From: Escherichia phage BF17
Direction: 5' to 3' (one strand)
DNA length: 64,000 bases
Sequence record: MW822008.1
Shown here: in pieces, positions 3,031-64,000 of the stretch
Numbering within the stretch: the stretch's first letter is position 1
Layout: each line of letters opens with the position of its first letter
Notes under the pieces: model-generated
The model's input: only the letters and a program-made list of their open reading frames with translations
What the model was told of the DNA's origin: nothing
Database searches by the model: none
Program-made: the position numbers and the translations under genes

Positions 3031-3603
3031 ATGAATAGAAAAGGTAAGTTCAAAGTATCAAAGAAGAACAAAAGTTCTAGATTTAGACCTATAACTTTAA
3101 CTTTTAAGGCTAAAGAAGAATTAACTGCACTTAGTAAAAAGATAATTTCATCTAAGATTAAAGTATCATACGTAAATTCGGTAAAATTTCAGAAGGTTAA
3201 ACCACAAGACAAACTCATTTCACTTATATTTAAACGTAATGATTTTGAGATATTAGTAGATGATTATAGAGCCTATAATGCTGGATTCATTCATGTCACT
3301 TGTAATACCGAACTAACTGAGTTGGAACATTTGACATGTATCATAAGTGTAGATAACGGTGTGGTGAAGTACAATTTTTTACATTTTACCAATATCAATA
3401 ATGGAATGGGTGTACAATCCAGACCTATAGTACCTACATGTGATGTGACTAATTTAGCAAAGCTCAATGAAGAAGAATATTTTCAAGAAAGCATTGTAAC
3501 TGAGCATTTAGATGCTATAATAGCAACTTACAAAGAATGCATATGGGTTTTGAATGCGATAAAGCCCAAATTGTGTTTAATGAATGTCGTTCGTGATTTA
3601 TAA
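3031..3603 (+). CDS. hypothetical protein
   Basis: 190-aa ORF with Lys-rich N-terminus. Confidence 0.6.
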   Translation: MNRKGKFKVSKKNKSSRFRPITLTFKAKEELTALSKKIISSKIKVSYVNSVKFQKVKPQDKLISLIFKRNDFEILVDDYRAYNAGFIHVTCNTELTELEHLTCIISVDNGVVKYNFLHFTNINNGMGVQSRPIVPTCDVTNLAKLNEEEYFQESIVTEHLDAIIATYKECIWVLNAIKPKLCLMNVVRDL

Positions 3604-20680: not shown

Positions 20681-21817
20681 TTAAACTGGTGGAGAATTAT
20701 ATGGCTCAAATTTATAAGTTGTCGTAGCAGTACCAGCAATGGCGTTGTTAGCTAGTATGTACATAGTCCTGTAGTCGATTACCACTACAGTAATACTACC
20801 ACCAAAAGCATAGTCTGTTATGTTATTAGTGTTGAATGGTAAATTAGATGAACTGGTCCATGTATTAGCTGTTGTGCTATTTGTACCATTGGAATAACCT
20901 ACACTAGATGCACCAGTTGTCCATAAGTTTCCATCATTGAACAAGGAGACATGGTTAGTTGTATATGATTTATTAGGTATAGAACTATCAATTGGTGTAT
21001 TCCAAACTTTAGTAACCCATGTTGTAACTGCTGTATTATTAGTAACGCCATTACCTAATGAACCATTTATTGGTATACCTCTTATATAAGAAGTGTTAGT
21101 ACTAGGGTCAACATATCCAAATGTATATGTATCAAATGCAAATTGAAAACAATCAGAACTCGGTAATGTGTACAGTAATGTATATGAAGACGTGTTTATT
21201 GATGAATTTGTACCGTTCACACCTTGGTATAAAATACCACTAGCCAATATTTGATTATTATTTTTTGTTATAGTGTTCATTGATGGATATGTTTTCACAT
21301 CACGCACATCATTAGTCACATATGTTTGTGTTGATAATGCAACGTTACTACCATTACCTATAACCCCTGTATTTGCACCACTCCCATAAAGTGAACCATC
21401 ATTCAAAAGAACCATTGTAACATTACCATTTCCCGTAATTGTTTTAATATTACTAACATCCACCGCAGCAAATACAGTTGATGTTAAATCAGTGAAACGT
21501 GTATAATGTGATGTTGTGCCATTGATTGGTGTCGCAAAACCAGAATACAAAATTCTATTTTCTTTGGTAATAAGGAATGTGCCAGTAACACCATTTGAAT
21601 GGATATCAACAATATTATCGCCCATTAATACCCAATCACTTACGAATGTTGTTGTACCAGTACCCAACCCATATGTCGTATTGTATCCACGTCCATACAC
21701 TCTACCATCACTGAGTAATGTTACCACACATTGACCACCACCACCAAGTATAACTTTTTGTATAGTACTCTTTACTTTTATATTCCCGTACTTAACCATT
21801 CTTGCAAAAGGTAACAT
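20681..21817 (-). CDS. array member 2: RCC1-like repeat protein
   Basis: 378 aa; N-term MLPFARMVKYGN; 14 nt downstream of member 3, so probably co-transcribed. Confidence 0.75.
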   Translation of the reverse strand: MLPFARMVKYGNIKVKSTIQKVILGGGGQCVVTLLSDGRVYGRGYNTTYGLGTGTTTFVSDWVLMGDNIVDIHSNGVTGTFLITKENRILYSGFATPINGTTSHYTRFTDLTSTVFAAVDVSNIKTITGNGNVTMVLLNDGSLYGSGANTGVIGNGSNVALSTQTYVTNDVRDVKTYPSMNTITKNNNQILASGILYQGVNGTNSSINTSSYTLLYTLPSSDCFQFAFDTYTFGYVDPSTNTSYIRGIPINGSLGNGVTNNTAVTTWVTKVWNTPIDSSIPNKSYTTNHVSLFNDGNLWTTGASSVGYSNGTNSTTANTWTSSSNLPFNTNNITDYAFGGSITVVVIDYRTMYILANNAIAGTATTTYKFEPYNSPPV

Positions 21818-38971: not shown

Positions 38972-39153
38972 ATCATATATTATACTATTACCAAAATCTA
39001 TCCGACAGGGACAAGTACACCCACAACTCCAATGTATGGTACTACAAACGCGGTAGTATAAGAGATAAACAACATTACTTCTGTATTGCTATAAAAGAAG
39101 CACTAACAACTAAGTACACGTACAGAGCAGTACTGAAACTTATTGATATGTAA
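38968..39153 (+). CDS. small protein, ~60-aa paralog family
   Basis: 61 aa; C-term YTYRAVLKLIDM. Confidence 0.5.
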   Translation: MNHILYYYQNLSDRDKYTHNSNVWYYKRGSIRDKQHYFCIAIKEALTTKYTYRAVLKLIDM

Positions 39154-39163
39154 AGAGAATACT

Positions 39164-39346
39164 ATGAGCATTGAATTGTACTTAAGTAAATTACAGCCTG
39201 GCGATAGATTCATCTACAATAAGTTCGAATTCAACTACAAGAACGGGAGCAACAAATATCGTCGAGGATACCTATATACAAGCACAAGAGATGCACAAAA
39301 CGAAAAGTACACATACAGAGAAGTACTTAAACTAATCTCTATTTGA
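39164..39346 (+). CDS. small protein, ~60-aa paralog family
   Basis: ORF 39143 trimmed to ATG 39164; C-term YTYREVLKLISI. Confidence 0.5.
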   Translation: MSIELYLSKLQPGDRFIYNKFEFNYKNGSNKYRRGYLYTSTRDAQNEKYTYREVLKLISI

Positions 39347-39354
39347 GGTAATAT

Positions 39355-39540
39355 ATGAATACATTTGAGTACTATACCAATAAACTATCTATGCCTGAAA
39401 GATCTCATCTCTATGTGTGGAGAAATGCGTATAAAAGCGGCAATAAACTTATACAAAGAAATTCCCTTACAGTGTGTACAAATTTAATTAAAGCAGAGTA
39501 CCGCACATATATTGAAGTACTGAAGCTGATAGCAATCTAA
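39355..39540 (+). CDS. small protein, ~60-aa paralog family
   Basis: 61 aa; MNTFEYY...VLKLIAI. Confidence 0.55.
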   Translation: MNTFEYYTNKLSMPERSHLYVWRNAYKSGNKLIQRNSLTVCTNLIKAEYRTYIEVLKLIAI

Positions 39541-39548
39541 GGTACTCT

Positions 39549-39728
39549 ATGCAAGAATTCTATATCTATAACCTCCAGCACAAAGATAGATACAACTATA
39601 ATAAATTCCAAAGGTACTACACAGTCGGGAACAAAAGAGATAAAAAACGATACCTACTATCATGTACAGTAGAAGCACAAAACGAAAAGTACACGTACAG
39701 AGAAGTACTTAAACTAATCTCAATCTAA
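39549..39728 (+). CDS. small protein, ~60-aa paralog family
   Basis: 59-aa ORF below track cutoff; MQEFYIY...YTYREVLKLISI. Confidence 0.5.
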   Translation: MQEFYIYNLQHKDRYNYNKFQRYYTVGNKRDKKRYLLSCTVEAQNEKYTYREVLKLISI

Positions 39729-39735
39729 GGTAGAC

Positions 39736-39924
39736 ATGAACACTTTTGAGTACTACTTCAATAAACTAAACCGCATAGAACAAAGTATGCACAACTCATT
39801 TATTCAGCACCATCAATCATCTGCATCTGGAATTAAAAATATATCGATTGAGATTATCACTACCCGTGTACTGTCATCTGAACGTTATATGTATATTGAT
39901 GTACTGAAACTCATCTCTATGTAA
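39736..39924 (+). CDS. small protein, ~60-aa paralog family
   Basis: 62 aa; MNTFEYY...VLKLISM. Confidence 0.55.
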   Translation: MNTFEYYFNKLNRIEQSMHNSFIQHHQSSASGIKNISIEIITTRVLSSERYMYIDVLKLISM

Positions 39925-39932
39925 GGAATAAT

Positions 39933-40112
39933 ATGCAAGAATACTATATAGAACACATAAGCATTAAAGACCGTTTCATGTACGACACCTTCGTGAAGTA
40001 CTACAACCTGGCAACTAACAGTACTAAAAATATTAATCTCAATAGCTGCATTCATCACGCACTAACAAAAGATAATCCCTTCAGGGAAATCCTCGCACTA
40101 GCATCTGTATAA
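39933..40112 (+). CDS. small protein, ~60-aa paralog family
   Basis: 59-aa ORF below track cutoff; MQEYYIEH. Confidence 0.45.
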   Translation: MQEYYIEHISIKDRFMYDTFVKYYNLATNSTKNINLNSCIHHALTKDNPFREILALASV

Positions 40113-40122
40113 AGGAAACCAA

Positions 40123-40782
40123 ATGAAACTTAATGCACACAGCAAACAATACCTTAAGCACTTTAAGTACCTCAACAGTATTCAAGCAGAATCTTTTACA
40201 TCTGCATATACGTATCACCCAAATGTACTAAAGAAACGAAATAAAAAGAAAAAATCCAGAAATGTTCTCGTATCTAAGAACCTCAAATCGTACTTGAAGA
40301 AAAATAATATAGCTCTTGCTTTTATTAATATCTATAATACTGATTTAAAAGTATTGAGTACTAATACCAGCACAAAAGCACTAAAGAATGCATCTATCTA
40401 TATACACATGGATAATATCCCGTGCACTATAATTCTATCTTTCGGGAATGTATACTTCTTCGGGAATTGTAATAGCACCCATGATATCAGTACTGCACAA
40501 TTCCAAATCGGAGATATGTACTGCATGGGTTCAGAAAAAATACACGATAACATGCACTTCTTCCAAAAGCAACGTACTAACGAAACTGATACAGTACTGC
40601 AATTCCTCAAAGAACTACAAAACAAAGAATTATCAGAAGAAGATCTATTCATGTACAGTACTGTAATCGATAATCCAGGACTCTATAAAAACGCGTACAA
40701 ACTAACAAAACATGTACAGGAACTTATCAGTACTGATAAGAAATTTCATAACCTCATTACGTATATTTCAAACTATGTATAA
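40123..40782 (+). CDS. hypothetical protein, paralog of 19998-20648
   Basis: 219 aa; embedded in the small-protein array. Confidence 0.65.
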   Translation: MKLNAHSKQYLKHFKYLNSIQAESFTSAYTYHPNVLKKRNKKKKSRNVLVSKNLKSYLKKNNIALAFINIYNTDLKVLSTNTSTKALKNASIYIHMDNIPCTIILSFGNVYFFGNCNSTHDISTAQFQIGDMYCMGSEKIHDNMHFFQKQRTNETDTVLQFLKELQNKELSEEDLFMYSTVIDNPGLYKNAYKLTKHVQELISTDKKFHNLITYISNYV

Positions 40783-40957
40783 AGAATACTACAAAGATAA
40801 AATCCCAATGCATCTACAACACCATATACCAAACGTTGCATTGGGTATCAAAGAACACGCAAAGATAATGTTCCAACAATGTACTAAGTACACGCTCATA
40901 TACGATGATAATCCATATATGCTGTACTACGTAGTAATGCTAACATTCAGGTACTAA
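40775..40957 (+). CDS. small protein, ~60-aa paralog family
   Basis: ORF 40712 trimmed to MYKEYYKDK. Confidence 0.5.
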   Translation: MYKEYYKDKIPMHLQHHIPNVALGIKEHAKIMFQQCTKYTLIYDDNPYMLYYVVMLTFRY

Positions 40958-40958
40958 T

Positions 40959-41138
40959 ATGCACAAATATAAAGAATTCTACCTCTCGTACCTTAATTCC
41001 GATATAGTAACATCCAATACCTTCAGTACTAAAATTATCTATAATGAATTAATGAAAGAATGTATTAAAGGTGCTATTAACCCTAAAGATACGTATGACT
41101 TGTACTATGCAGTACTAACCCTTGTTTTCACGAAATAA
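40959..41138 (+). CDS. small protein, ~60-aa paralog family
   Basis: 59-aa ORF below track cutoff; MHKYKEFY. Confidence 0.45.
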   Translation: MHKYKEFYLSYLNSDIVTSNTFSTKIIYNELMKECIKGAINPKDTYDLYYAVLTLVFTK

Positions 41139-41146
41139 CACATAAT

Positions 41147-41338
41147 ATGAATAACCACAAAGAATACTACATAGAGAAACTCCCAATGTATCTCCAACAT
41201 CTTGTACCAACAGAACCATTGCGTATAGAAAAAGACTACGAAAAAGACTACTTCGTTAAGTGCACTAAATCCTCGATAGATATTGAGGACTATAATCGAG
41301 TACTGTATCACATCCTTTTACTAATATATAAGTACTAA
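41147..41338 (+). CDS. small protein, ~60-aa paralog family
   Basis: 63 aa; MNNHKEYYIEKL...LLLIYKY. Confidence 0.55.
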   Translation: MNNHKEYYIEKLPMYLQHLVPTEPLRIEKDYEKDYFVKCTKSSIDIEDYNRVLYHILLLIYKY

Positions 41339-41339
41339 T

Positions 41340-41528
41340 ATGAATAACCACAAAGAATACTACATACAATTTCTCCCCAGTATTTTTGAACACTACGCCA
41401 GATATAAAGTCCCCCTGGATAACGATTTGGCAGTACTGGGATTCAATAACTGCATAGAACGAAGTATAGAAAATAGTAGTAGCTATGACCAATTATATAA
41501 CACTATCCTACTTATATTCAGGTACTAA
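41340..41528 (+). CDS. small protein, ~60-aa paralog family
   Basis: 62 aa; MNNHKEYYIQFL...LLIFRY. Confidence 0.55.
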   Translation: MNNHKEYYIQFLPSIFEHYARYKVPLDNDLAVLGFNNCIERSIENSSSYDQLYNTILLIFRY

Positions 41529-41529
41529 T

Positions 41530-41718
41530 ATGCATAAAGAATACTACACAAAATATTTCCCAATGTACCTCAGTACTAATCTATTAGATAAACCTCGCGG
41601 TATCAATGCTCAAAACGATAAAGTGTACTTTACTATGTGCACTAAAGCATGTATACTAGATTTTGACAGCTATCATCGAGTACTGTATCATACCCTGTAC
41701 CTAGCTTTCGTGTACTAA
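41530..41718 (+). CDS. small protein, ~60-aa paralog family
   Basis: ORF 41485 trimmed to MHKEYYTKY. Confidence 0.55.
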   Translation: MHKEYYTKYFPMYLSTNLLDKPRGINAQNDKVYFTMCTKACILDFDSYHRVLYHTLYLAFVY

Positions 41719-41728
41719 AGAGGCCAAT

Positions 41729-41935
41729 ATGAACGAACAGAAAGAATTTTACACCAAACACCTCAGTGCATCAGAACAAATGTTTCTAAGGAGTGTATCA
41801 CCTTTAAGTTTAGATACACCACACGCCAGAGATTGCTTTAATAATTGTATACGTATTACTCTAGAAGCTTTAGAAAACAATAACAAAAATATTCAGTACT
41901 CAGGCGTAATGGGACTAATATTCTTCTATGAATAA
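41729..41935 (+). CDS. small protein, ~60-aa paralog family
   Basis: 68 aa; close paralog of 42309. Confidence 0.55.
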   Translation: MNEQKEFYTKHLSASEQMFLRSVSPLSLDTPHARDCFNNCIRITLEALENNNKNIQYSGVMGLIFFYE

Positions 41936-42116
41936 CAAAGAATTCTACTTAAACCATCTGGAACTAAACTCCCAAATGCTTATACCACTAAAACCAATAG
42001 ATATCAAGGATAAGAAAAATACCAAACAATTCCACTACCACACACTATGTGCAATCAACCCAGATTATAATACATATAAACTGTACTACATTCTCGCCCT
42101 AATATACAGGTACTGA
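41928..42116 (+). CDS. small protein, ~60-aa paralog family
   Basis: 62 aa; ends LALIYRY. Confidence 0.55.
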   Translation: MNNKEFYLNHLELNSQMLIPLKPIDIKDKKNTKQFHYHTLCAINPDYNTYKLYYILALIYRY

Positions 42117-42117
42117 T

Positions 42118-42303
42118 ATGCATAGAGAATACTACACACAATTTGTTAAAGGGAACTACAAACACGCCGTCCCCGTAAACCCCTTAAATTCTAATGACCC
42201 AAGTACTATATTCTTGTTCCATGACGCAATACGTACAGTACTCAATACTAAAGATGAACAGGTGCAGTACGTATTCTTACTATTACTTATATACAGACAC
42301 TAA
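42118..42303 (+). CDS. small protein, ~60-aa paralog family
   Basis: 61 aa; MHREYYTQF...LLLIYRH. Confidence 0.55.
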   Translation: MHREYYTQFVKGNYKHAVPVNPLNSNDPSTIFLFHDAIRTVLNTKDEQVQYVFLLLLIYRH

Positions 42304-42308
42304 CTAAT

Positions 42309-42518
42309 ATGAATAAAGAACATAAAGAATACTACTCCAAACACCTCAGCCCCTCAGAACAAATGTTTCTAAGGACTACAGCACCTTTAAGTACTGATAC
42401 ATATTTCGGCAGATTATGCTACAATAATTGTATTCAAATGACTTTAAACGCAAACGACAATAATAACAGTACTAACCTGTACTCAGGCATCATAGGTATA
42501 CTATTTCTATATGAATAA
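42309..42518 (+). CDS. small protein, ~60-aa paralog family
   Basis: 69 aa; MNKEHKEYYSKHLSPSEQMFLR. Confidence 0.55.
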   Translation: MNKEHKEYYSKHLSPSEQMFLRTTAPLSTDTYFGRLCYNNCIQMTLNANDNNNSTNLYSGIIGILFLYE

Positions 42519-42693
42519 AAAACATAAAGAGTACTATATAAGTAAACTAACATTCGTCCCCGTAAAAATATATAAAGAATGCGACCCAAGATTATACCTA
42601 TGGCACTTCAATGAGTGCATAAAAGATTCTATATACCATAAGAACTATAAAGAACAATTGATCTCAGTACTAACACTAGTACTATCATATTAA
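42511..42693 (+). CDS. small protein, ~60-aa paralog family
   Basis: 60 aa; MNKKHKEYYISKL. Confidence 0.55.
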   Translation: MNKKHKEYYISKLTFVPVKIYKECDPRLYLWHFNECIKDSIYHKNYKEQLISVLTLVLSY

Positions 42694-42706
42694 TAGAGAT
42701 AATACT

Positions 42707-42889
42707 ATGTATAAAGACTTCTATATAAGTAAACTAAAAGAAAATGAACAAATATGGATTAACAATCTAATCCCCCTACCAATGACTCAATACGAATTTA
42801 ATATGTGTACAAAGATTGTTTTAACTAGTAATGATATCTCTAATACGTACTACTTCCTATTAAGAGTACTATATGGTACTTTGAAATAA
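42707..42889 (+). CDS. small protein, ~60-aa paralog family
   Basis: 60 aa; MYKDFYISKL. Confidence 0.5.
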   Translation: MYKDFYISKLKENEQIWINNLIPLPMTQYEFNMCTKIVLTSNDISNTYYFLLRVLYGTLK

Positions 42890-42900
42890 TAAGGTATACT

Positions 42901-43107
42901 ATGCAGAACATAAAAAACTATAAAGAGTACTATATAAGTAAACTACCACCGACTGACCAAGCATGGATTAGATCTATAATAGTACTGGCATTTAATAGAT
43001 ATGCATTTAACAGATGTACCGAGATTGCTATAGACCCTTATAATATTAAAGAGAATGTACAGCATAATCAGTACTACTATATGTTAATGCTTATATATAG
43101 GAAGTAA
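42901..43107 (+). CDS. small protein, ~60-aa paralog family
   Basis: 68 aa; last member; ...YKEYYISKL...MLMLIYRK. Confidence 0.55.
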   Translation: MQNIKNYKEYYISKLPPTDQAWIRSIIVLAFNRYAFNRCTEIAIDPYNIKENVQHNQYYYMLMLIYRK

Positions 43108-43227
43108 TTCAACATATAGACAGGGGAAGCTCCGCAGGGAAAGCATTGGACAGGCTTTAACATATGTTATATATGTTAAAATTCAGCCTGGACAAATGCG
43201 ATCACTAGGATTCTCCCCAGGCTAAAC

Positions 43228-43520
43228 CCCGTAATCATATGTAGTCATAAGTAATCATATATAAACATTTATGTAATCATTTATAATCATTGTAGTGATT
43301 AGTATTGAGTACTAGAGTGTAATAGAGTACAGGAATGTGCACGTTTAATCAAGAACGTAGCAGTACTGCCCCAAAAGTATTCAGTACTGAAGGTGTCGAT
43401 ATCCCACTAAAGTAGGCAGAGGAAGTCTGCCGTACTTTTTAGTTTCCAAGCTCCTTTTCCATTTTTCAAATTACATCAAATGTAATCAAAAGTAATCACG
43501 CAATGATTAGTACTGAATTA
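43228..43520. repeat. cluster of GTAATCA / TGATTAC heptamer repeats
   Basis: GTAATCAT five times in 43228-43300; ATGTAATCAAAAGTAATCACGCAATGATTAG at 43470-43515. Confidence 0.5.
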
Positions 43521-44194
43521 TTACTTTCACCTTAATTTCAATTACCCTTTTACCCGTCGGGGTAAAATTCAATTACCCCTTGAGGCTCCAGAAAAAAGTT
43601 GGTTAGTACTCCATCCTAAATCTCGATCCTAAAAATTTTGGAGTACCTATGAAATAAAAGTTGGATCTTCGAAAGTTGAAATTTACGTTGGGACGTTTAT
43701 GATTTGTGGGATATAATGATGTTTGTAGACGGGTAGTTCTCAAGAATATCAGTACTGAATAATGAAAGAAAGTTATTGACATTATGATTCAGTACTGTAT
43801 AATGTTCTACATAGCTTCAAGGGTGATGAGTTGCTGCGAACAATTCATTTACTCTACCTCCTGTCGTGAGACAGTACAGAAAAGATAGTTCCTCCTGTGG
43901 TGGTACATCTTTTTGAACCTCATATGAAAATCGTAATAACAGTACTGATATTAACAGAATGGTGTCAGTACTGATTTTAATCTAAAGCATTATGCCACCA
44001 GCACAAGCTGGTGGATTCCCTCTAACAGTATTCAGTACTACATGATAGTCTTCATCCTCCTAGGGTAACATAGTGAGGGCTATGATGGCAGTACTGAATA
44101 CTCCCTTTCAAAAGATAGATCTATGGTATAGTACTGACGGATTTTGGGCGTAGTTACCCTGGATGGATTTTGGACGTAGATATGTCTAGCCCTC

Positions 44195-44335
44195 CAGAAG
44201 TCTGGAAGTAAAGATGGCTATCCATCTAGACGGCTAAACGGCTAGATTTCTGGATGGCTAGATGGCTAGACGTTTGGACGGCTAAACGGCTAGATGGTTA
44301 CACGTCTGGAAGTATAGACGGCTAAATCAAAATTT
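44195..44335. repeat. iteron-like cluster of GGCTA(A/G)A / ACGGCTA repeats
   Basis: GGCTA nine times in ~130 bp. Confidence 0.55.
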
Positions 44336-45081
44336 TATTTTGTTTTTCCAATAGTTCCCCTACCGCGTGGGGATAGTTTCCCCGCAGTATCTGGAGTTAG
44401 ATTTTTCTGAATCTGGAATCATTATCTTATAAACTGGGGGCAATGTCAACGACCTGGACGGATATTTTTAAAAATTTTTTCAGTACTGAATTTTGGGCGT
44501 AACTATGCACCCGGTGGGCTTGAGTCTTTCTCGACTTGATGGAACTATTATACAGTACTGAAAAAATAAAGCAATACCCTGGAAGCAAAAAAGTTTTAAT
44601 TAATTTGCTTGCTATCCTGGGCCGGACTATGGTACTATATTTCAGTACTGAGAAAGTGCGTTTACCTGCTAGGGTGCGGGAGTGTATCCTTTTTTTATAT
44701 CTTGAATTTTGGGCGTAATTTCGCACCCTCTGGGGTTTCCGCTTTCTCGCGTCTATGTAGTAATTATACGCTTTTTCAGGATCAAGTCAATACCTAAAAA
44801 CAAAATAATTGAAAATAATTTAACGCGTTTAAACGGCCCGTAAAGCCCTGGAATGATTGGAATGGTGCAAATGTATAGCTTATGTGTATTAATGCGTTAG
44901 AATGCGTCTGAGGCCGTTTTACGGGGTATGGGGATGATTTGGTGGATTGATTCAGTACTGAATAATAGTACTACTATATAGAAAGATAGTTCCCCTGGAT
45001 GGTTGCAGTACTGAATGATAGTACTGAATAATAGTTCCCCTATATAGAAAGAAAACTATTTTAAAAGTATTTGTAGAAAGT

Positions 45082-45142
45082 ACTTGCAAACTAAGTTTAA
45101 CGGCGTATAATGTTTTACATCGAGAGCGGGAACACTTCCCGC
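45082..45142 (+). promoter_or_regulatory. early-type sigma70-like promoter with leader hairpin
   Basis: ACTTGCAAACTAAGTTTAACGGCG TATAAT ... GCGGGAACACTTCCCGC. Confidence 0.6.
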
Positions 45143-45166
45143 TACATATTACGAGAGATTAAAACG

Positions 45167-45529
45167 ATGGCGACTCAAATCACTAAAATTATTGCTAACC
45201 TGGTTAACTTTCGCGACGAGATGAAAGATCTTCCGGCAGAAACGGTAAAAATTCACATTTCAGCTTATCGGGAACTTATTGCAATGTTACCGCTTAAGCG
45301 TGAACAATACGCCGCGACCGTGATGCTTGATGCGATGATCCATAAGATGATCGCCAGTGATTTAACGATGGTTTATCAGTATATGGGCGAAAATTTCGCG
45401 GTGTATAGTAAACCAGTACCAGGAATGGAAAGTACAGAAGTATTACACGGTTTAAATTTAAAACAAGATGCATGGGATAATATGCCTCGTTTCCTGGTAT
45501 GGGCTGACAGTGGCAAAATTTACGAATAA
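45167..45529 (+). CDS. hypothetical protein
   Basis: ORF 45110 trimmed to MATQITK; the longer reading starts inside the promoter. Confidence 0.6.
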   Translation: MATQITKIIANLVNFRDEMKDLPAETVKIHISAYRELIAMLPLKREQYAATVMLDAMIHKMIASDLTMVYQYMGENFAVYSKPVPGMESTEVLHGLNLKQDAWDNMPRFLVWADSGKIYE

Positions 45530-46850: not shown

Positions 46851-47092
46851 GCAGTTTACAAATCTTTACAATTGCCGGTATTGACTTATTTTGTCAGTAC
46901 TGGCATAATGTATTCATTGGCAGATAAGCCGTAGCCCATAGGGTGCGGGAGTGTATCTATAGAAAAAGTAGTTTATTACAGTTACAATTGTGCACCCGGT
47001 GGGTTAGCTGTTGTCATGGGGTATATTATGCCAGTACTTGATAATGCTGTCAATACTTTTTTTACTATTCAGTACTGAAAACTATTTTTAAA

Positions 47093-48540: not shown

Positions 48541-48606
48541 AGTACTTGCAATTAGTTTTCAGTACTGTATAATGGTTTACATCAAAGGGAGAAATGGTTC
48601 TCCCTG
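48541..48606 (+). promoter_or_regulatory. early-type promoter with leader hairpin
   Basis: ACTTGCAATTAG...TATAAT; hairpin GGGAGAAATGGTTCTCCC. Confidence 0.6.
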
Positions 48607-48845: not shown

Positions 48846-49009
48846 CAACGCGGGGAGATAATAACTCCCCGTTACTTTTTCAGTACTGAATCATTTAATA
48901 GACGGATCTATGCACCCGGTGGGTTAGTGACTGTTTCGTCTTGATGTAGTAATTATGCCAGTACTGGATGCACTTGTCAACAACTATTTTTCAAATACTT
49001 TTTATTAAA

Positions 49010-59679: not shown

Positions 59680-59922
59680 ATGATTACTTTAGAAAAACGT
59701 ATCAAAGAAACTACATCGCTGGTGGAACTGTTAACAGTACTGAAATGCCGTACTACTCGGTTTAGTACACCGGACTTTATTAATATGGTTGATGTTAACG
59801 GTCGTTATCGCATTGCAGTAGAACATGGAACAGCGAAAGTATTCAGTACTAAAAACACTAAGGAAGTGATTCACGCGGTTAGTGTGAAAAAAGTGGTTGC
59901 CATTGATAGTAAAGTACTGTAA
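59680..59922 (+). CDS. hypothetical protein
   Basis: trimmed to MITLEKRIKE. Confidence 0.55.
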   Translation: MITLEKRIKETTSLVELLTVLKCRTTRFSTPDFINMVDVNGRYRIAVEHGTAKVFSTKNTKEVIHAVSVKKVVAIDSKVL

Positions 59923-59953
59923 GATAGTTTCATTAACTCAAGGAGAACATGCA

Positions 59954-60538
59954 ATGCGTAATTATACTAAATTCATCCGTACCCTGTCAGAAATGGAAAC
60001 CAACAAAGAGATCCTTTCAGCTTGTCGGTTAGCTGGTCTGGAGATCATCGGTGCGGGTTCTTCCCGTATTGTATTCGCTTTAAATGATCGGTTAGTGATT
60101 AAGGTCGCCAATTGTGATGCGGGTGTAGAACAAAATGAAACTGAATGTAAGGTATGGAATTTTTTAGACTATGACCGCCCTCAATTGAAACAGTACTTTG
60201 CAAAGGTGCATATGCATTTATGCGATCCTGATAATATGTTTATCGTTATGGATCGGTTGAGTACTGCAAGCAAAGGCAGTGTAAAGCACGTTAACGCGTG
60301 CAACGAATTAAAGTACAATATTAAACGTAATGCCATTGAACGCCAGCACCGCTTTGCTGATGCACTACAACACGTCGATGATACATTATCAACACTAACG
60401 ATAAGAGATATCAGAAAACAGAATATCGGCCAGGATCGTAATGGACTTATTAAAGTACTTGATTACGGTTTAACCCGCAATATCTGGAATCAGTACTATA
60501 AAAAGCGTGATGTGGCAGCAAGTAAAGTAACACGATAA
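59954..60538 (+). CDS. possible small protein-kinase-like protein
   Basis: trimmed to MRNYTKF after AGGAGA; kinase-like motifs IGAGSSRIVF, VIKVA, IRDIRKQNIG, VLDYGL. Confidence 0.45.
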   Translation: MRNYTKFIRTLSEMETNKEILSACRLAGLEIIGAGSSRIVFALNDRLVIKVANCDAGVEQNETECKVWNFLDYDRPQLKQYFAKVHMHLCDPDNMFIVMDRLSTASKGSVKHVNACNELKYNIKRNAIERQHRFADALQHVDDTLSTLTIRDIRKQNIGQDRNGLIKVLDYGLTRNIWNQYYKKRDVAASKVTR

Positions 60539-63848: not shown

Positions 63849-64000
63849 TGCGTAAAGGGATCTAGTACTGATTCAGAAAAAAGTCAAGGCGTTTTTAAAA
63901 TTATGCGTTAAAAAAATGCATAGGTAATCCCTTGACTTTTTTGAAATAAAAGGGATTGGACTATGGCAAAATGCGTAGGGGGCTAAAGGGCGGGTAACCT

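Follow-up and report, generated by a model that had tools for sequence, protein, structure and literature searches.

A gene-free leader with putative early promoters and a predicted MetJ operator array at the probable terminal-repeat junction of Escherichia phage BF17

The window analyzed here, 64,000 nucleotides of Escherichia phage BF17, is the terminal 64 kb of an Asteriusvirus genome (PBECO4/121Q/G17-like). Between a flanking gene (42901-43107) and the first gene of the direct terminal repeat (DTR) it contains a coding desert, which the earlier note had described as about 2 kb of gene-free DNA packed with repeats. Both parts of that description hold: no ORF of at least 30 amino acids is intact across all ten aligned Asteriusvirus genomes, and the repeats are non-random when their counts are compared with those elsewhere in the window. 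The first DTR gene starts with the ATG at 45167 and not at 45110, because the frame opening at 45110 is disrupted in 121Q, CMSTMSU, and A4; the desert therefore spans 43108-45166. Substitutions in the desert show no third-position bias (e.g., 49/50/40 and 56/59/51 by codon position), compared with 15/5/16 in the genuine flanking gene 42901-43107. All seven candidates for conserved small ORFs in the desert, among them the 99 amino acid ORF annotated as g614 in fEgEco12, were rejected as broken in some relatives or lacking codon-position bias. A tRNA/tmRNA scan of the window gave no hits, and Rfam searches at the gathering threshold and at E ≤ 1 gave only chance matches to eukaryotic families. 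Ten flanking and DTR proteins have no Pfam match above the curated cut-offs; most of the DTR proteins are small ORFans that defy classification. In IMG/VR the first DTR protein matches phage 121Q only. Most Asteriusvirus records are arbitrarily permuted, and the desert is left blank in them or given spurious ORFs.

The position of the chromosome end can be read from relatives. Three independently determined record ends align to 43411: the starts of fEgEco12 and vB_Ec-M-J and, in reverse complement, the end of G17. The termini of fEgEco12 come from PhageTerm plus restriction digests (PMC13070987) and those of G17 from read coverage (PMC6563267), and the vB_Ec-M-J record has an annotated DTR. 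The final base of the window is the other DTR boundary, its end (...GGGCGGGTAACCT) matching nt 20993 of fEgEco12, where the DTR of that phage ends. In relatives the DTR measures 20,993 and 21,525 bp, and its duplication has been verified there. In all probability, then, 43411 is where the virion DNA has its left physical end, and the window finishes at the right one. With these two boundaries, the desert consists of a 303-bp tail of the unique region followed by the first 1.76 kb of the right DTR copy. The repeat is presumably duplicated in BF17 itself, given that the window stops exactly at the conserved right terminus; the left copy would lie outside the window. The features around the junction are as follows.

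43108-43410, no strand assigned: non-coding tail of the unique region; its final ~90 bp is the least conserved part of the region (identity 0.32-0.63 at 43320-43400)
43231-43302, plus strand: GTAATCA cluster 1, with three exact copies, variants, and inverted TGATTAG (identity 0.67-0.84)
43398-43438, no strand assigned: probable chromosome left end and DTR start, cut between 43410 and 43411, with GATATCCCACTAA before and AGTAGGCAGAGGAAGTCTGCC after the cut
43411-64000, plus strand: DTR, right copy (20,590 bp); the window ends where the fEgEco12 DTR does
43466-43515, plus strand: GTAATCA cluster 2 (ACATCAAATGTAATCAAAAGTAATCAcgcaATGATTAG), 56-105 bp inside the end (identity 0.83-0.86)

The cut sits at the base of a hairpin-capable 12-bp inverted repeat, and the terminus DNA folds at -9.0 kcal/mol (z = -4.3). 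Just before the cut, only GATATnnCACTA(A) is common to the relatives. Inside the end, GAAGTC at nt 12-17 is common to Serratia phage BF, Erwinia phage pEa_SNUABM_12 (hereafter pEa12), XbC2, and CBB, and reads AAAGTC in Muenster; at the right cut site, the sequence CT before and TAGC after the cut is kept in Asteriusvirus, Muenster, and CBB. The heptamer GTAATCA occurs five times in the desert (0.42 expected; P = 7.5e-5), always on the plus strand. The GTAATCA/TGATTAC repeats of the earlier note are thus enriched as far as GTAATCA goes, but their inverted copies read TGATTAG, not TGATTAC. The two clusters flank the cut on both sides, cluster 1 lying 110-180 bp to the left of the terminus, and are genus-specific; they may seat the terminase. 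Of the proposal that this region is an origin or a packaging site, the packaging half is supported by the termini of three relatives at 43411. The "iteron" cluster on which the proposal leaned is away from the cut, as the 8-bp array lies 770-913 bp inside the DTR. Headful-type packaging with permuted, imprecise ends, as at P1 pac, is contradicted by ends that are nucleotide-exact in the three relatives.

To the right of the cut, the leader from 43411 to the ATG at 45167 (1.76 kb) is very likely a functional cis region. Identity per block, computed against nine relatives (individual GenBank records), is 0.90-0.98 over 43600-44920, as against 0.73 in the adjacent gene. The order of its modules is common to Asteriusvirus, four other Rak2-like genera, and the unclassified Salmonella phage Munch: the end sequence, a strong sigma-70 promoter for a short structured RNA, a periodic array, and early-promoter cassettes facing left and right. 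BF, pEa12, XbC2, Muenster, and Munch each have 1.3-1.8 kb of gene-free DNA at the start of their records, and the modules share about 65-80% sequence identity across genera. The features of the leader are listed below.

43600-43700, no strand assigned: near-invariant block with TCCATCCTAAATCTCGATCCTAAAAATTTTGGAGTACC (identity 0.96-0.98)
43776-43803, plus strand: perfect sigma-70 promoter TTGACA-16-TATAAT (12/12 match; identity 0.94), with CAGTACTG within the spacer
43809-44016, plus strand: TU1, candidate non-coding early RNA of ~205 nt
44142-44179, plus strand: pair of TTTTGGRCGTAG repeats at a distance of 26 bp, immediately before the array
44180-44323, no strand assigned: metbox-like array (the earlier "iterons"), 18 in-phase 8-bp positions, 16 of them above the single-box threshold
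44324-44385, no strand assigned: A/T-rich tract, then a conserved block TTTTCCAATAGTTCCCCTACCGCG and a small hairpin (identity 0.91-0.96)
44421-44449, minus strand: leftward promoter-like site TTGACA-17-GATAAT (11/12 match; identity 0.87-0.92), putatively active
44491-44583, minus strand: leftward early-promoter cassette 1, TTGCTT-16-TATAAT with CAGTACTG, matching the profile (identity 0.92-0.97)
44611-44697, plus strand: TU2, promoter and predicted ~50-nt transcript with an intrinsic terminator, containing CUAGGGUGC (identity 0.94-0.98)
44707-44790, minus strand: leftward early-promoter cassette 2, TTGACT-16-TATAAT (11/12 match), matching the profile and antisense to TU2
44800-44920, no strand assigned: most conserved block of the desert (identity 0.86-1.00; 1.00 at 44800-44819), with no conserved codon-biased ORF
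44948-45050, no strand assigned: variable repeat zone made of 13-bp tandem units (CAGTACTGAATRATAGT) and copies of ATAGTTCCCCT; identity is as low as 0.36, and the zone differs in length among relatives
45084-45166, plus strand: promoter of the first DTR gene, AGTACTTGCAA-16-TATAAT (10/12 match), with a 5' hairpin GCGGGAACACTTCCCGC and a ribosome site before the ATG at 45167

In BF, pEa12, XbC2, and Munch the TCCATCCTAAATCTCGATCCTAAAAATTTTGGAGTACC module likewise occurs, ~90-240 nt from the end; in Muenster it is weak. The other genera have a strong promoter at the place equivalent to 43776, +270 to +400. TU1 has a minimum free energy of -68.7 kcal/mol, compared with -46.5 in shuffles (z = -5.65). 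It contains two CCUCCU motifs, a long hairpin built from two copies of CAGUACUG, and, at the end, a hairpin (CCACCAGC/GCUGGUGG) that is annotated as a terminator in G17 and kept in Munch. Double changes occur in 8 of its 43 consensus pairs, some non-standard cell in 24, and the ORF that overlaps it is broken in relatives. TU2 would end at an intrinsic terminator called at 44671-44690 and followed by a run of seven T; its fold by itself is ordinary (z = -0.8), and this stretch has 68-75% identity in Klebsiella phages Muenster, RaK2, and K64-1. Klebsiella phage phiKp_21, which had appeared to be an "unrelated" carrier of TU2, is merely a partial Alcyoneusvirus record. The start of cassette 1 is of the TACAT type, its leader has small hairpins, and TTTTGGGCGTA lies distally. 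Cassette 2 also ends distally in TTTTGGGCGTA, and its core TTTCCGCACCCTCTGGGGTYTCCGCTTTCTCGCGTCTATGTAGTAATTATAC, kept in Munch, XbC2, and BF, is less well preserved in Muenster. The profile built from the three cassette copies in the window also matches rightward early promoters on the opposite strand, e.g., at 48560, 53247, 10071, and 43790. One repeat ("module 7", TTTTGGGCGTA...GCACCC...) was considered as a novel RNA gene family; by the profile search it is an ordinary early-promoter cassette facing left. Promoters of the AGTACTTGMM type number 15 in the DTR.

Could all of this be functionless, repeat-rich junk at a module boundary, made by slippage and a genome-wide word bias? Word counts lend the idea something. 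The motif CAGTACTG, put at "about twenty" copies, in fact has 12 exact ones in the desert (1.6 expected; P = 1.7e-7), 20 being the count of the AGTACT core; both words are over-represented genome-wide, and CAGTACTG, with 63 copies in the window against 0.94 expected, is not desert-specific. The orphan promoter-like sites pointed out earlier are no commoner than in shuffles (12 vs 13.6; TATAAT 5 vs 5.4), though several are conserved, the 12/12 promoter at 43776-43803 among them, and simple 8-bp microsatellites can mimic arrays such as the one discussed below. The three reported copies of TTTTGGGCGTA are all exact, with one further TTTTGGACGTA, and neither form is found elsewhere in the window. 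Against junk stand the 90-98% identity, which exceeds that of the adjacent coding sequence, the module order kept across genera at about 65-80% identity, the heterogeneous and individually constrained array units, and a physical terminus inside the desert. We regard this explanation as scarcely credible.

We now turn to the array. Tandem Repeats Finder reports an 8-bp period with 12.4 copies at 44226-44324. The GGCTA(A/G)A cluster of the earlier note is real in that the desert has nine copies (0.26 expected), but only seven, not nine, fall within 44232-44320, and the label "iterons" has to be dropped: instead of the spaced repeats of a Rep-type origin, the array has 8-mers that adjoin without gaps and fit the operator model for the host repressor MetJ. 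For scoring we used the published half-metbox matrix (PMC3228920) and required at least two contiguous in-phase 8-bp boxes, each with at least 1/4 of the consensus score, and a total of at least 12.58 bits. The array, with the consensus AGAYGKCT, has a core of 14 consecutive boxes (44212-44323) that scores 105.1 bits against the threshold of 12.58 and is the only qualifying site in the 64 kb; in shuffles no run exceeded 3 boxes or 23 bits. Its mean of 7.5 bits per box is attained by only about 0.1% of 8-mers. Base frequencies in the left half follow the published metbox frequencies, second choices included, and box positions 1-5, 7, and 8 agree with them; position 6 is G in 64% of boxes vs 10% expected. 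The boxes differ from one another, and relatives carry 14-17 of them, whole 8-bp boxes having been gained or lost with the fit retained. The matrix thresholds are lenient, as a strict five-box scan of IMG/VR also returned ~18 perfect 8-bp microsatellites that satisfy the matrix, e.g., (AAACATTT)n; a matrix score alone is therefore not proof of a metbox. No DnaA, LexA, or Fur box was found in the BF17 desert. The array has no methionine gene beside it, and the nearest promoter-like site is ~90 bp away and does not overlap it, unlike in met operators. Escherichia falls within one of the five MetJ-bearing orders (PMC3228920). On balance the sequence fit tips us slightly toward the array being a MetJ binding site. 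We found no description of a MetJ-type operator array at a phage genome end, and our literature searches on MetJ or met boxes in phages gave nothing relevant.

Similar arrays lie at the left DTR end of unrelated T5-like and T7-like phages. Aeromonas T5-like phage AhSzq-1 has 28 heterogeneous metbox-like boxes, Providencia-type contigs have 9 near-consensus boxes, Vibrio phage Chester has 11 at nt 3-107 of its DTR, and T7-like PGT2 has 9 at nt 38-109, inside a DTR of 260 bp. The listed hosts are all in the five MetJ-bearing orders with one nominal exception, an array-bearing phage recorded as a Xanthomonas phage, whose host lacks MetJ. T5 itself was rejected as a carrier: it has no metbox run, and its DRD repeats are a different sequence. 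By lineage, the carriers are Rak2-like jumbo phages, T5-like Demerecviridae (of Vibrio, Aeromonas, and Providencia), and T7-like Ermolevavirus, with 9-28 MetJ-type boxes. Some jumbo phages have Fur-type sites in the same slot, and some T5-likes add single LexA and DnaA boxes. Fur-box-like sites number 7 in Muenster and 4 in Munch, where about 0.15 would be expected; roughly half occupy the array slot, and the remainder lie further along the leader.

These comparisons bear on what binds the array. Short contiguous repeat arrays are classic targets of ribbon-helix-helix (RHH) centromere-binding proteins, and a phage-encoded RHH or similar protein might occupy this one in a centromere- or operator-like manner (ParR, omega, ParG) in place of MetJ. 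All phage arrays are G-biased at position 6 (38-78% of units vs 10% in natural operators), which drops a contacted base on one half-site and could indicate a different binder, and the DTR proteins are mostly unclassifiable small ORFans. Yet one box consensus recurs in three groups of phages whose gene sets are unrelated (42-kb T7-like, ~120-kb T5-like, and ~350-kb Rak2-like), so a shared host factor is favored; the hosts belong to MetJ-bearing orders, and tblastn found no phage-encoded MetJ homologue in 50,697 phage records, a search that a distant RHH protein would escape. We therefore hold a phage RHH binder to be improbable.

The same evidence speaks to the origin half of the earlier proposal. 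Here a phage initiator would bind the 8-bp array, melt the A/T-rich tract at 44324-44347 (AAATCAAAATTTTATTTTGTTTTT, directly after the array), and start replication; in a variant, leader transcripts would prime replication as R-loops in the style of T4 origins. T4 oriE does use iterons. The adjoining A/T-rich tract is a weak, non-specific feature, but there are also several strong promoters, highly conserved non-coding DNA, a cumulative GC skew minimum at about 43 kb, and the T4-type replisomes of Rak2-like phages (PMC5259590). The skew switch, however, largely tracks gene orientation and composition blocks, there is no DnaA box in 43108-45109, and the ten flanking and DTR proteins, most of them unclassifiable, include no recognizable initiator, the rest of the 350-kb genome lying outside the window. 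Instead of spaced iterons of 17-22 bp, the array has 8-mers in direct succession that fit the model of a host repressor. Moreover, sister lineages have Fur-box-like units between the same flanks, which is awkward for an initiator and iterons that co-evolve: GATTTTGGGTGTA takes the place of the TTTTGGRCGTAG repeats in BF, pEa12, and Munch, and TTTTCCATTAGYTCCCCTTCCGCG follows the array in BF, pEa12, and XbC2 and is degenerate in Munch and Muenster, independently of array type. Like arrays also occur inside the 260-bp T7-like DTR and, in a T5-like phage, at the very end of the DTR. An origin is less likely than a packaging end, and for both of its forms together we put the chances low.

A third alternative accepts MetJ as the binder and makes the array a decoy, whose two replicated copies would titrate MetJ (Fur in the sister lineages) and derepress the methionine/SAM or iron-uptake genes of the host. 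With 28-34 boxes per genome and natural sites that need merely two or more, the numbers are suitable, and the swap between MetJ-type and Fur-type boxes suits the logic of a sponge for metabolite-sensing repressors. A sponge, however, needs no fixed position at the leading end, and T5-like phages, which have the longest arrays, are reported to degrade host DNA within minutes, leaving little to gain from derepression. We find a decoy unlikely as well.

We thus favor as the probable explanation that the desert is the junction between the Asteriusvirus unique region and the right DTR copy, followed by a leader with the cut sequence, early promoters, and a predicted MetJ array. The hairpin-capable inverted repeat with its conserved GAAGTC would provide for end recognition and cutting, with the GTAATCA heptamer clusters beside the cut as possible terminase seats in this genus. 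Once the DNA end is in the cell, the host sigma-70 cassettes, in both orientations, would produce short non-coding RNAs. On the contiguous array of 14-16 units that fits the MetJ operator model, MetJ with its corepressor SAM would polymerize cooperatively and form a protein block near the end. It is tempting to speculate that this block gates the leftward transcription starting ~90 bp to the right of the array, since the transcript predicted from 44421-44449 reaches the array after ~90 nt; this specific role, which the geometry suggests, is doubtful. More generally, the array might make some step at the leading end, such as DNA entry, protection of the end, transcription of the leader, or processing of concatemers, depend on the host's metabolic state, and the Fur-box-like arrays in the equivalent slot of sister lineages would read iron instead. 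MetJ-SAM and Fur-Fe pre-exist in the host and could assemble on the first incoming DNA. The wider idea, that DTR phages of three unrelated lineages place host-repressor operator arrays at the leading DNA end, where host sensors act as a metabolite-dependent switch or block, is plausible but somewhat short of an even chance.

The chromosome end and the first kilobases to enter the cell decide how annotation, genome engineering, and packaging studies are set up. For long-DTR phages and the formation of their ends, the leader offers a parts list (cut site, early promoters, small RNAs, and a predicted repressor array) from which experiments can start. If the MetJ and Fur arrays bind their repressors, phage DNA ends would be tied to the SAM and iron status of the host, and a lytic phage could sense host physiology before any phage protein is made, in a manner not described before; the long-standing question of what host factors do at the leading end of T5-type genomes would become open to experiment as well. 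Any phage genome can be examined in the same way for box arrays where its DTR starts.

How does the leader compare with known systems? One close match is the untranslated repeat region in the left terminal repeat of T5 (Repeat Region 3, or injection stop signal), a gene-free stretch of 1-2 kb in a long DTR beside the boundary between repeat and unique DNA. In T5-type regions, the order of elements is better kept among relatives than the nearby genes are, and eight DnaA boxes, sites for a DNA-binding protein of the host, are clustered (bioRxiv 10.1101/866236). BF17 likewise has a long, gene-free, repeat-dense DTR region whose element order is conserved in diverged relatives. The T5 region, however, occupies the inner (right) end of the left repeat, and the BF17 leader the outer (left) end. 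T5 has DnaA boxes paired in large inverted repeats, together with GTGCAAATCCGACA repeats and no metbox run, while the BF17 desert is devoid of DnaA boxes; and T5 injects its DNA in two steps, which is not known for Rak2-like phages.

The left end and concatemer junction of T7 (SRL/SRR, A1-A3) similarly combines fixed ends, a direct terminal repeat, and short-repeat arrays beside the end. Dunn and Studier are said to have described, in 1983, strong promoters for host RNA polymerase in the first ~0.4-0.8 kb of T7 that fire as the leading end enters, much as would happen here. T7 differs in its CCTAAAG heptamers with spacers, compared with contiguous 8-mers, and in a repeat of 160 bp, compared with 20 kb; in addition, the BF17 leader gives predicted non-coding RNAs in both directions before the first gene. 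At lambda cos and P1 pac, a defined cleavage point is flanked by short-repeat clusters that seat terminase, and lambda also uses the host architectural protein IHF. GTAATCA lies on both sides of the BF17 cut in the same way, but lambda and P1 have cohesive or headful-permuted ends, whereas BF17 has blunt-type fixed ends of a 20-kb repeat and its clusters are genus-specific.

Two systems resemble the array itself. At plasmid centromeres (omega heptads, ParR/parC), a small dimeric RHH protein forms a cooperative filament on uninterrupted arrays of 7-11-bp units, and MetJ is itself an RHH protein; in contrast to plasmids, no partition ATPase or RHH gene was identified among the ten flanking and DTR proteins, and the phages that carry the arrays are lytic and have unrelated gene sets. 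The E. coli met operators share with the phage arrays contiguous in-phase 8-bp units, a AGACGTCT-like consensus, degenerate boxes, and a T-to-A step at the box junctions. They differ in having an adjacent methionine gene, an overlapped promoter, and no systematic G at position 6; the phage arrays are placed at a DNA end, and natural met operators have two to five boxes, where the phage arrays have 14-28.

No candidate open reading frame in the desert, the gene-free and repeat-rich stretch proposed in the earlier note, is intact in every genome of a 10-genome Asteriusvirus alignment (0 intact in 10/10 genomes), and its substitutions are even across codon positions (the real gene adjacent to it shows 15/5/16). 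No tRNA and no Rfam family was found in it. The gene-free claim is borne out, and because the next gene block opens with an ATG at 45167 rather than at 45110, the desert extends over 43108-45166. Phages G17 and fEgEco12 annotate this first gene of the repeat (45110-45529) from ATG 45110. The frame from 45110 is disrupted in 121Q, CMSTMSU and A4, and the conserved start is ATG 45167.

By megablast, 43108-45100 matches 41 phage records at 88-97% identity, all of them PBECO4/121Q/G17-like jumbo coliphages and Salmonella phages of the genus Asteriusvirus (approximately 350 kb). In most records the matched segment carries no annotation or merely runs of "hypothetical proteins." Where records measure 366-386 kb, the match is approximately 20-21 kb from an end of the record, which suggested a tie to the direct terminal repeats (DTRs) reported for this group. 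fEgEco12 is linear with 20,993-bp DTRs, as determined by PhageTerm and nine restriction digests (PMC13070987), and G17 has approximately 20 kb of terminal redundancy judged from coverage (PMC6563267); the vB_Ec-M-J record carries an annotated DTR of 21,525 bp. Both fEgEco12 and vB_Ec-M-J begin with, and G17 in reverse complement ends with, the nucleotide that aligns to position 43411 of the window (...GATATCCCACTAA/AGTAGGCAGAGGAAGTCTGCC, the slash marking the cut). The fEgEco12 repeat has its other boundary (...GGGCGGGTAACCT/TAGCGACTTCG) at the last base of the window. The window thus represents the right-hand 64 kb of a genome in DTR format, with 43411-64000 (20,590 bp), judged by its match to these termini, as the right repeat copy. 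The proposal of a packaging site or ends was thus right for the region, which has a chromosome end inside it, and misplaced in detail, the cut being at 43411 and not at the "iterons," a GGCTA(A/G)A cluster near 44200-44330. The terminus is already known for relatives.

The cut sits at the base of a 12-bp inverted repeat capable of forming a hairpin (DNA fold z=-4.3), and its unique-side flank has the lowest conservation of the region (identity 0.32-0.63). GAAGTC occupies nucleotides 12-17 of the left end in BF17, Serratia phage BF, Erwinia phage pEa_SNUABM_12, XbC2 and CBB. The right cut is also kept across genera (...AACCT/TAGCG in Asteriusvirus, ...AGGCT/TAGCA in Muenster, ...ACGCT/TAGCG in CBB), with GTATTAC approximately 21 nt outside it in all three. 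CTAAAG, approximately 14 nt inside, is likewise conserved in these genera, whose ends were determined independently. Before the desert, 39100-43107 holds approximately 18 small + strand genes (57-81 amino acids, one of 219) with GC skew near -0.2 and AT skew near +0.2. Both signs are reversed in the + strand genes of the repeat, so that the skew flips at the terminus while the coding strand is unchanged.

From the end at 43411 to ATG 45167 runs what we call the leader. Identity to nine relatives is 0.90-0.98 over 43600-44920, compared with 0.73 for the preceding gene, and distant BLAST searches matched short pieces of the desert close to where the records of other Rak2-like genera begin. We read these starts directly in BF and pEa_SNUABM_12 (Eneladusvirus; hosts Serratia and Erwinia), XbC2 and CBB (Mimasvirus; Xanthomonas and Pectobacterium), Muenster (Alcyoneusvirus; Klebsiella; DTR 1-20030 by PhageTerm) and Munch (Salmonella). 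All of them have 1.3-1.8 kb without genes, in which the modules follow one another as in the window, an anatomy apparently undescribed before, as far as we could find.

Modules of the leader, in order, and single features (window positions unless a locus is named)
Module 1: end sequence
Module 2: CCTAAATCTCGATCCTAAAAATTTTGGAGTACC block
Module 3: strong sigma-70 promoter at +270 to +400, then a short transcript with CCUCC motifs
Module 4: periodic array, about +650 to +915
Module 5: TTTTCCATTAGYTCCCCTNCCGCG
Module 6: promoter/terminator units around inverted GCACCCT motifs
43776-43803: promoter, 12/12 consensus match
45110-45166: promoter -10, 5' hairpin and ribosome site of the first repeat gene
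63950-64000 (also loci L008 2445-2545, L024, and L025 22407-22506): right physical genome end, context ...CT/TAGC(G/A)

The RNA of approximately 205 nt predicted from the 43776-43803 promoter folds far better than its shuffles (z=-5.65) and shows some compensatory changes, yet many imperfect pairs. At 43860-43900 this candidate early RNA has two copies of CCUCCUGU(C/G)GUG, similar to the anti-Shine-Dalgarno end of 16S rRNA; CCUCC motifs are present in the corresponding XbC2 and Muenster transcripts as well. Such an RNA might act as a decoy for ribosome-binding sites.

With expectations taken from the rest of the window, the repeats reported in the earlier note are real and non-random: GTAATCA occurs 5 times (0.42 expected), GGCTARA 9 times (0.26), TTTTGGRCGTA 4 times (none) and CAGTACTG 12 times (1.6). 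Some of its counts were too high, since 7 rather than nine GGCTARA copies lie inside the array and CAGTACTG has twelve copies rather than about twenty; CAGTACTG is moreover a genome-wide word (63 copies, 0.94 expected). Promoter-like sites are no commoner than in shuffles, but individual ones are conserved. Among palindromic hexamers AGTACT is by far the most over-represented in the window (275 copies, 21.6 expected, 12.7-fold), including the structural-gene regions, and it is also abundant in the leaders of other Rak2-like genera; CGATCG, CCGCGG, CCCGGG, CCATGG, AGGCCT and AGCGCT are absent from the window altogether.

The repeats containing TTTTGGGCGTA are leftward-pointing copies of the standard early-promoter cassette of the phage (-35, CAGTACTG, TATAAT, TACAT start, 5' hairpin), and their profile also matches, on the opposite strand, the usual rightward promoters of the repeat. 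The promoter-like units of the leader thus number three in the rightward and three in the leftward direction, and two of them converge over a 50-nt terminated transcript (44611-44697). Further leftward cassettes at 48881-48990 and 46986-47043, within the otherwise rightward-transcribed repeat, would yield antisense or non-coding transcripts. Between the inverted GCACCCT arms, where the window and XbC2 have TTTTGGGCGTA, three relatives have single Fur-box-like sites, which suggests that TTTTGGGCGTA is itself a putative protein-binding site.

Fur-box-like sites between GCACCCT arms
BF (L009): 1034-1052
Munch (L013): 1041-1059
Muenster (L012): 1079-1097 and 1306-1324

Elsewhere in the repeat, a 213-amino acid protein (59897-60538) has a weak, sub-threshold match to a protein kinase domain (E=0.003), which brings to mind the early host-takeover kinase of T7; all other repeat proteins tested were unclassifiable.

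Tandem Repeats Finder gives the "iterons" a period of 8 bp. Re-phased, the units read AGATGGCT ATCCATCT AGACGGCT AAACGGCT AGATTTCT GGATGGCT AGATGGCT AGACGTTT GGACGGCT AAACGGCT AGATGGTT ACACGTCT GGAAGTAT AGACGGCT, and resemble the tandem 8-bp "metbox" (AGACGTCT) to which the methionine repressor MetJ binds. Scored with the information matrix published by Augustus and Spicer and with their thresholds (PMC3228920; 12.58 bits), the window has a single qualifying site, 14 consecutive in-phase boxes at 44212-44323 (105.1 bits), with two further in-phase boxes upstream; 30 shuffles of the window reached at most 3 boxes and 23 bits, and merely some 0.1% of 8-mers attain the mean box score. Base frequencies at positions 1-5, 7 and 8 track published metboxes, including second-choice bases, while position 6 is mostly G instead of T, which could mean weaker binding or another binder. 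Nine Asteriusviruses have 14-17 boxes, with whole boxes gained or lost and single boxes substituted while the matrix fit is retained, and BF, pEa_SNUABM_12, XbC2 and CBB have 13-16 at the equivalent place. The matrix scan found no metboxes in Muenster and Munch, which have 7 and 4 Fur-box-like sites, respectively (at least 14/19 to GATAATGATAATCATTATC; approximately 0.15 expected), about half of them in the slot of the array and the others farther down the leader. Binding of the array by MetJ is a prediction that we rate as slightly more likely than not.

T5-like and T7-like phages were matched by the array alone in BLAST searches.

Arrays (from matrix scans) and adjoining sites in these phages
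Aeromonas phage AhSzq-1: 28 consecutive boxes (221 bits); adjoining sites, LexA (one) and DnaA (one)
Vibrio phage Chester: 11 boxes; adjoining sites, LexA (one) and DnaA (two)
PGT2 and phiKT: 9 boxes each
Host-regulator site cluster at the terminal-repeat start: Chester (L014) about nt 210-310 of the record; AhSzq-1 (L015) 3490-3540

Self-comparison places the array at nt 3-107 of a DTR of approximately 8 kb in Chester and at nt 38-109 of a 260-bp DTR in PGT2; it therefore lies at the left end of the terminal repeat in three groups unrelated in their genes. In the Vibrio and Aeromonas T5-like phages approximately 300 bp encompass the array, a LexA box with a perfect match (CTGT-N8-ACAG) and one or two DnaA boxes of consensus sequence; T5 itself lacks the array. 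The hosts of the matched phages belong to orders possessing MetJ, with one nominal exception, Xanthomonas, whose phage belongs to Mimasvirus, as does Pectobacterium phage CBB, to which it is closely related. Among 50,697 phage records, none encodes a detectable MetJ homologue. When IMG/VR was scanned for five strict boxes, the matches comprised four heterogeneous arrays in contigs of T5-like size and approximately 18 perfect microsatellites; since the latter also pass the matrix, its score alone is not proof, and the case for the array relies on its constrained heterogeneity, its recurrence, its position and the host range. Our search of the searchable literature library found no publication linking MetJ boxes to phage genomes, and repressor-box arrays at DTR starts are, as far as we found, apparently undescribed.

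An iteron-type, Rep-dependent replication origin at the array, the other proposal of the earlier note, is less likely: the units are contiguous 8-mers of a swappable type, the same arrays occur within a 260-bp T7-type repeat, and no DnaA box was found in 43108-45109 and no initiator among ten flanking and DTR proteins. The GC-skew minimum at approximately 43 kb is compatible with an origin but explicable by gene blocks too. Established for the terminal-repeat reading are the position of the end, the lack of genes, the conservation, the order of modules and the fit to the matrix; beyond these, the terminase would recognise the hairpin/GAAGTC end sequence, possibly aided by the flanking GTAATCA clusters, and host RNA polymerase would fire the leader promoters once the end is inside the cell. 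MetJ-SAM would coat the array. A promoter-like site facing left (44449-44421) lies approximately 90 bp upstream of the array, so that with plentiful SAM a MetJ filament would block leftward transcription towards the end, a role we consider rather unlikely. In Chester and PGT2, that coat would cover the extreme end itself. The exchange between MetJ-type and Fur-type boxes suggests that the slot calls for a host protein that is already present, cooperative and dependent on a metabolite.

For the array, the E. coli met operator is the nearest analogue; the phage array differs in having 3-6 times more boxes and in lacking a met gene. The end architecture is closest to the T7 left end, and the region as a whole to the T5 terminal repeat's untranslated repeat region, which carries eight DnaA boxes.
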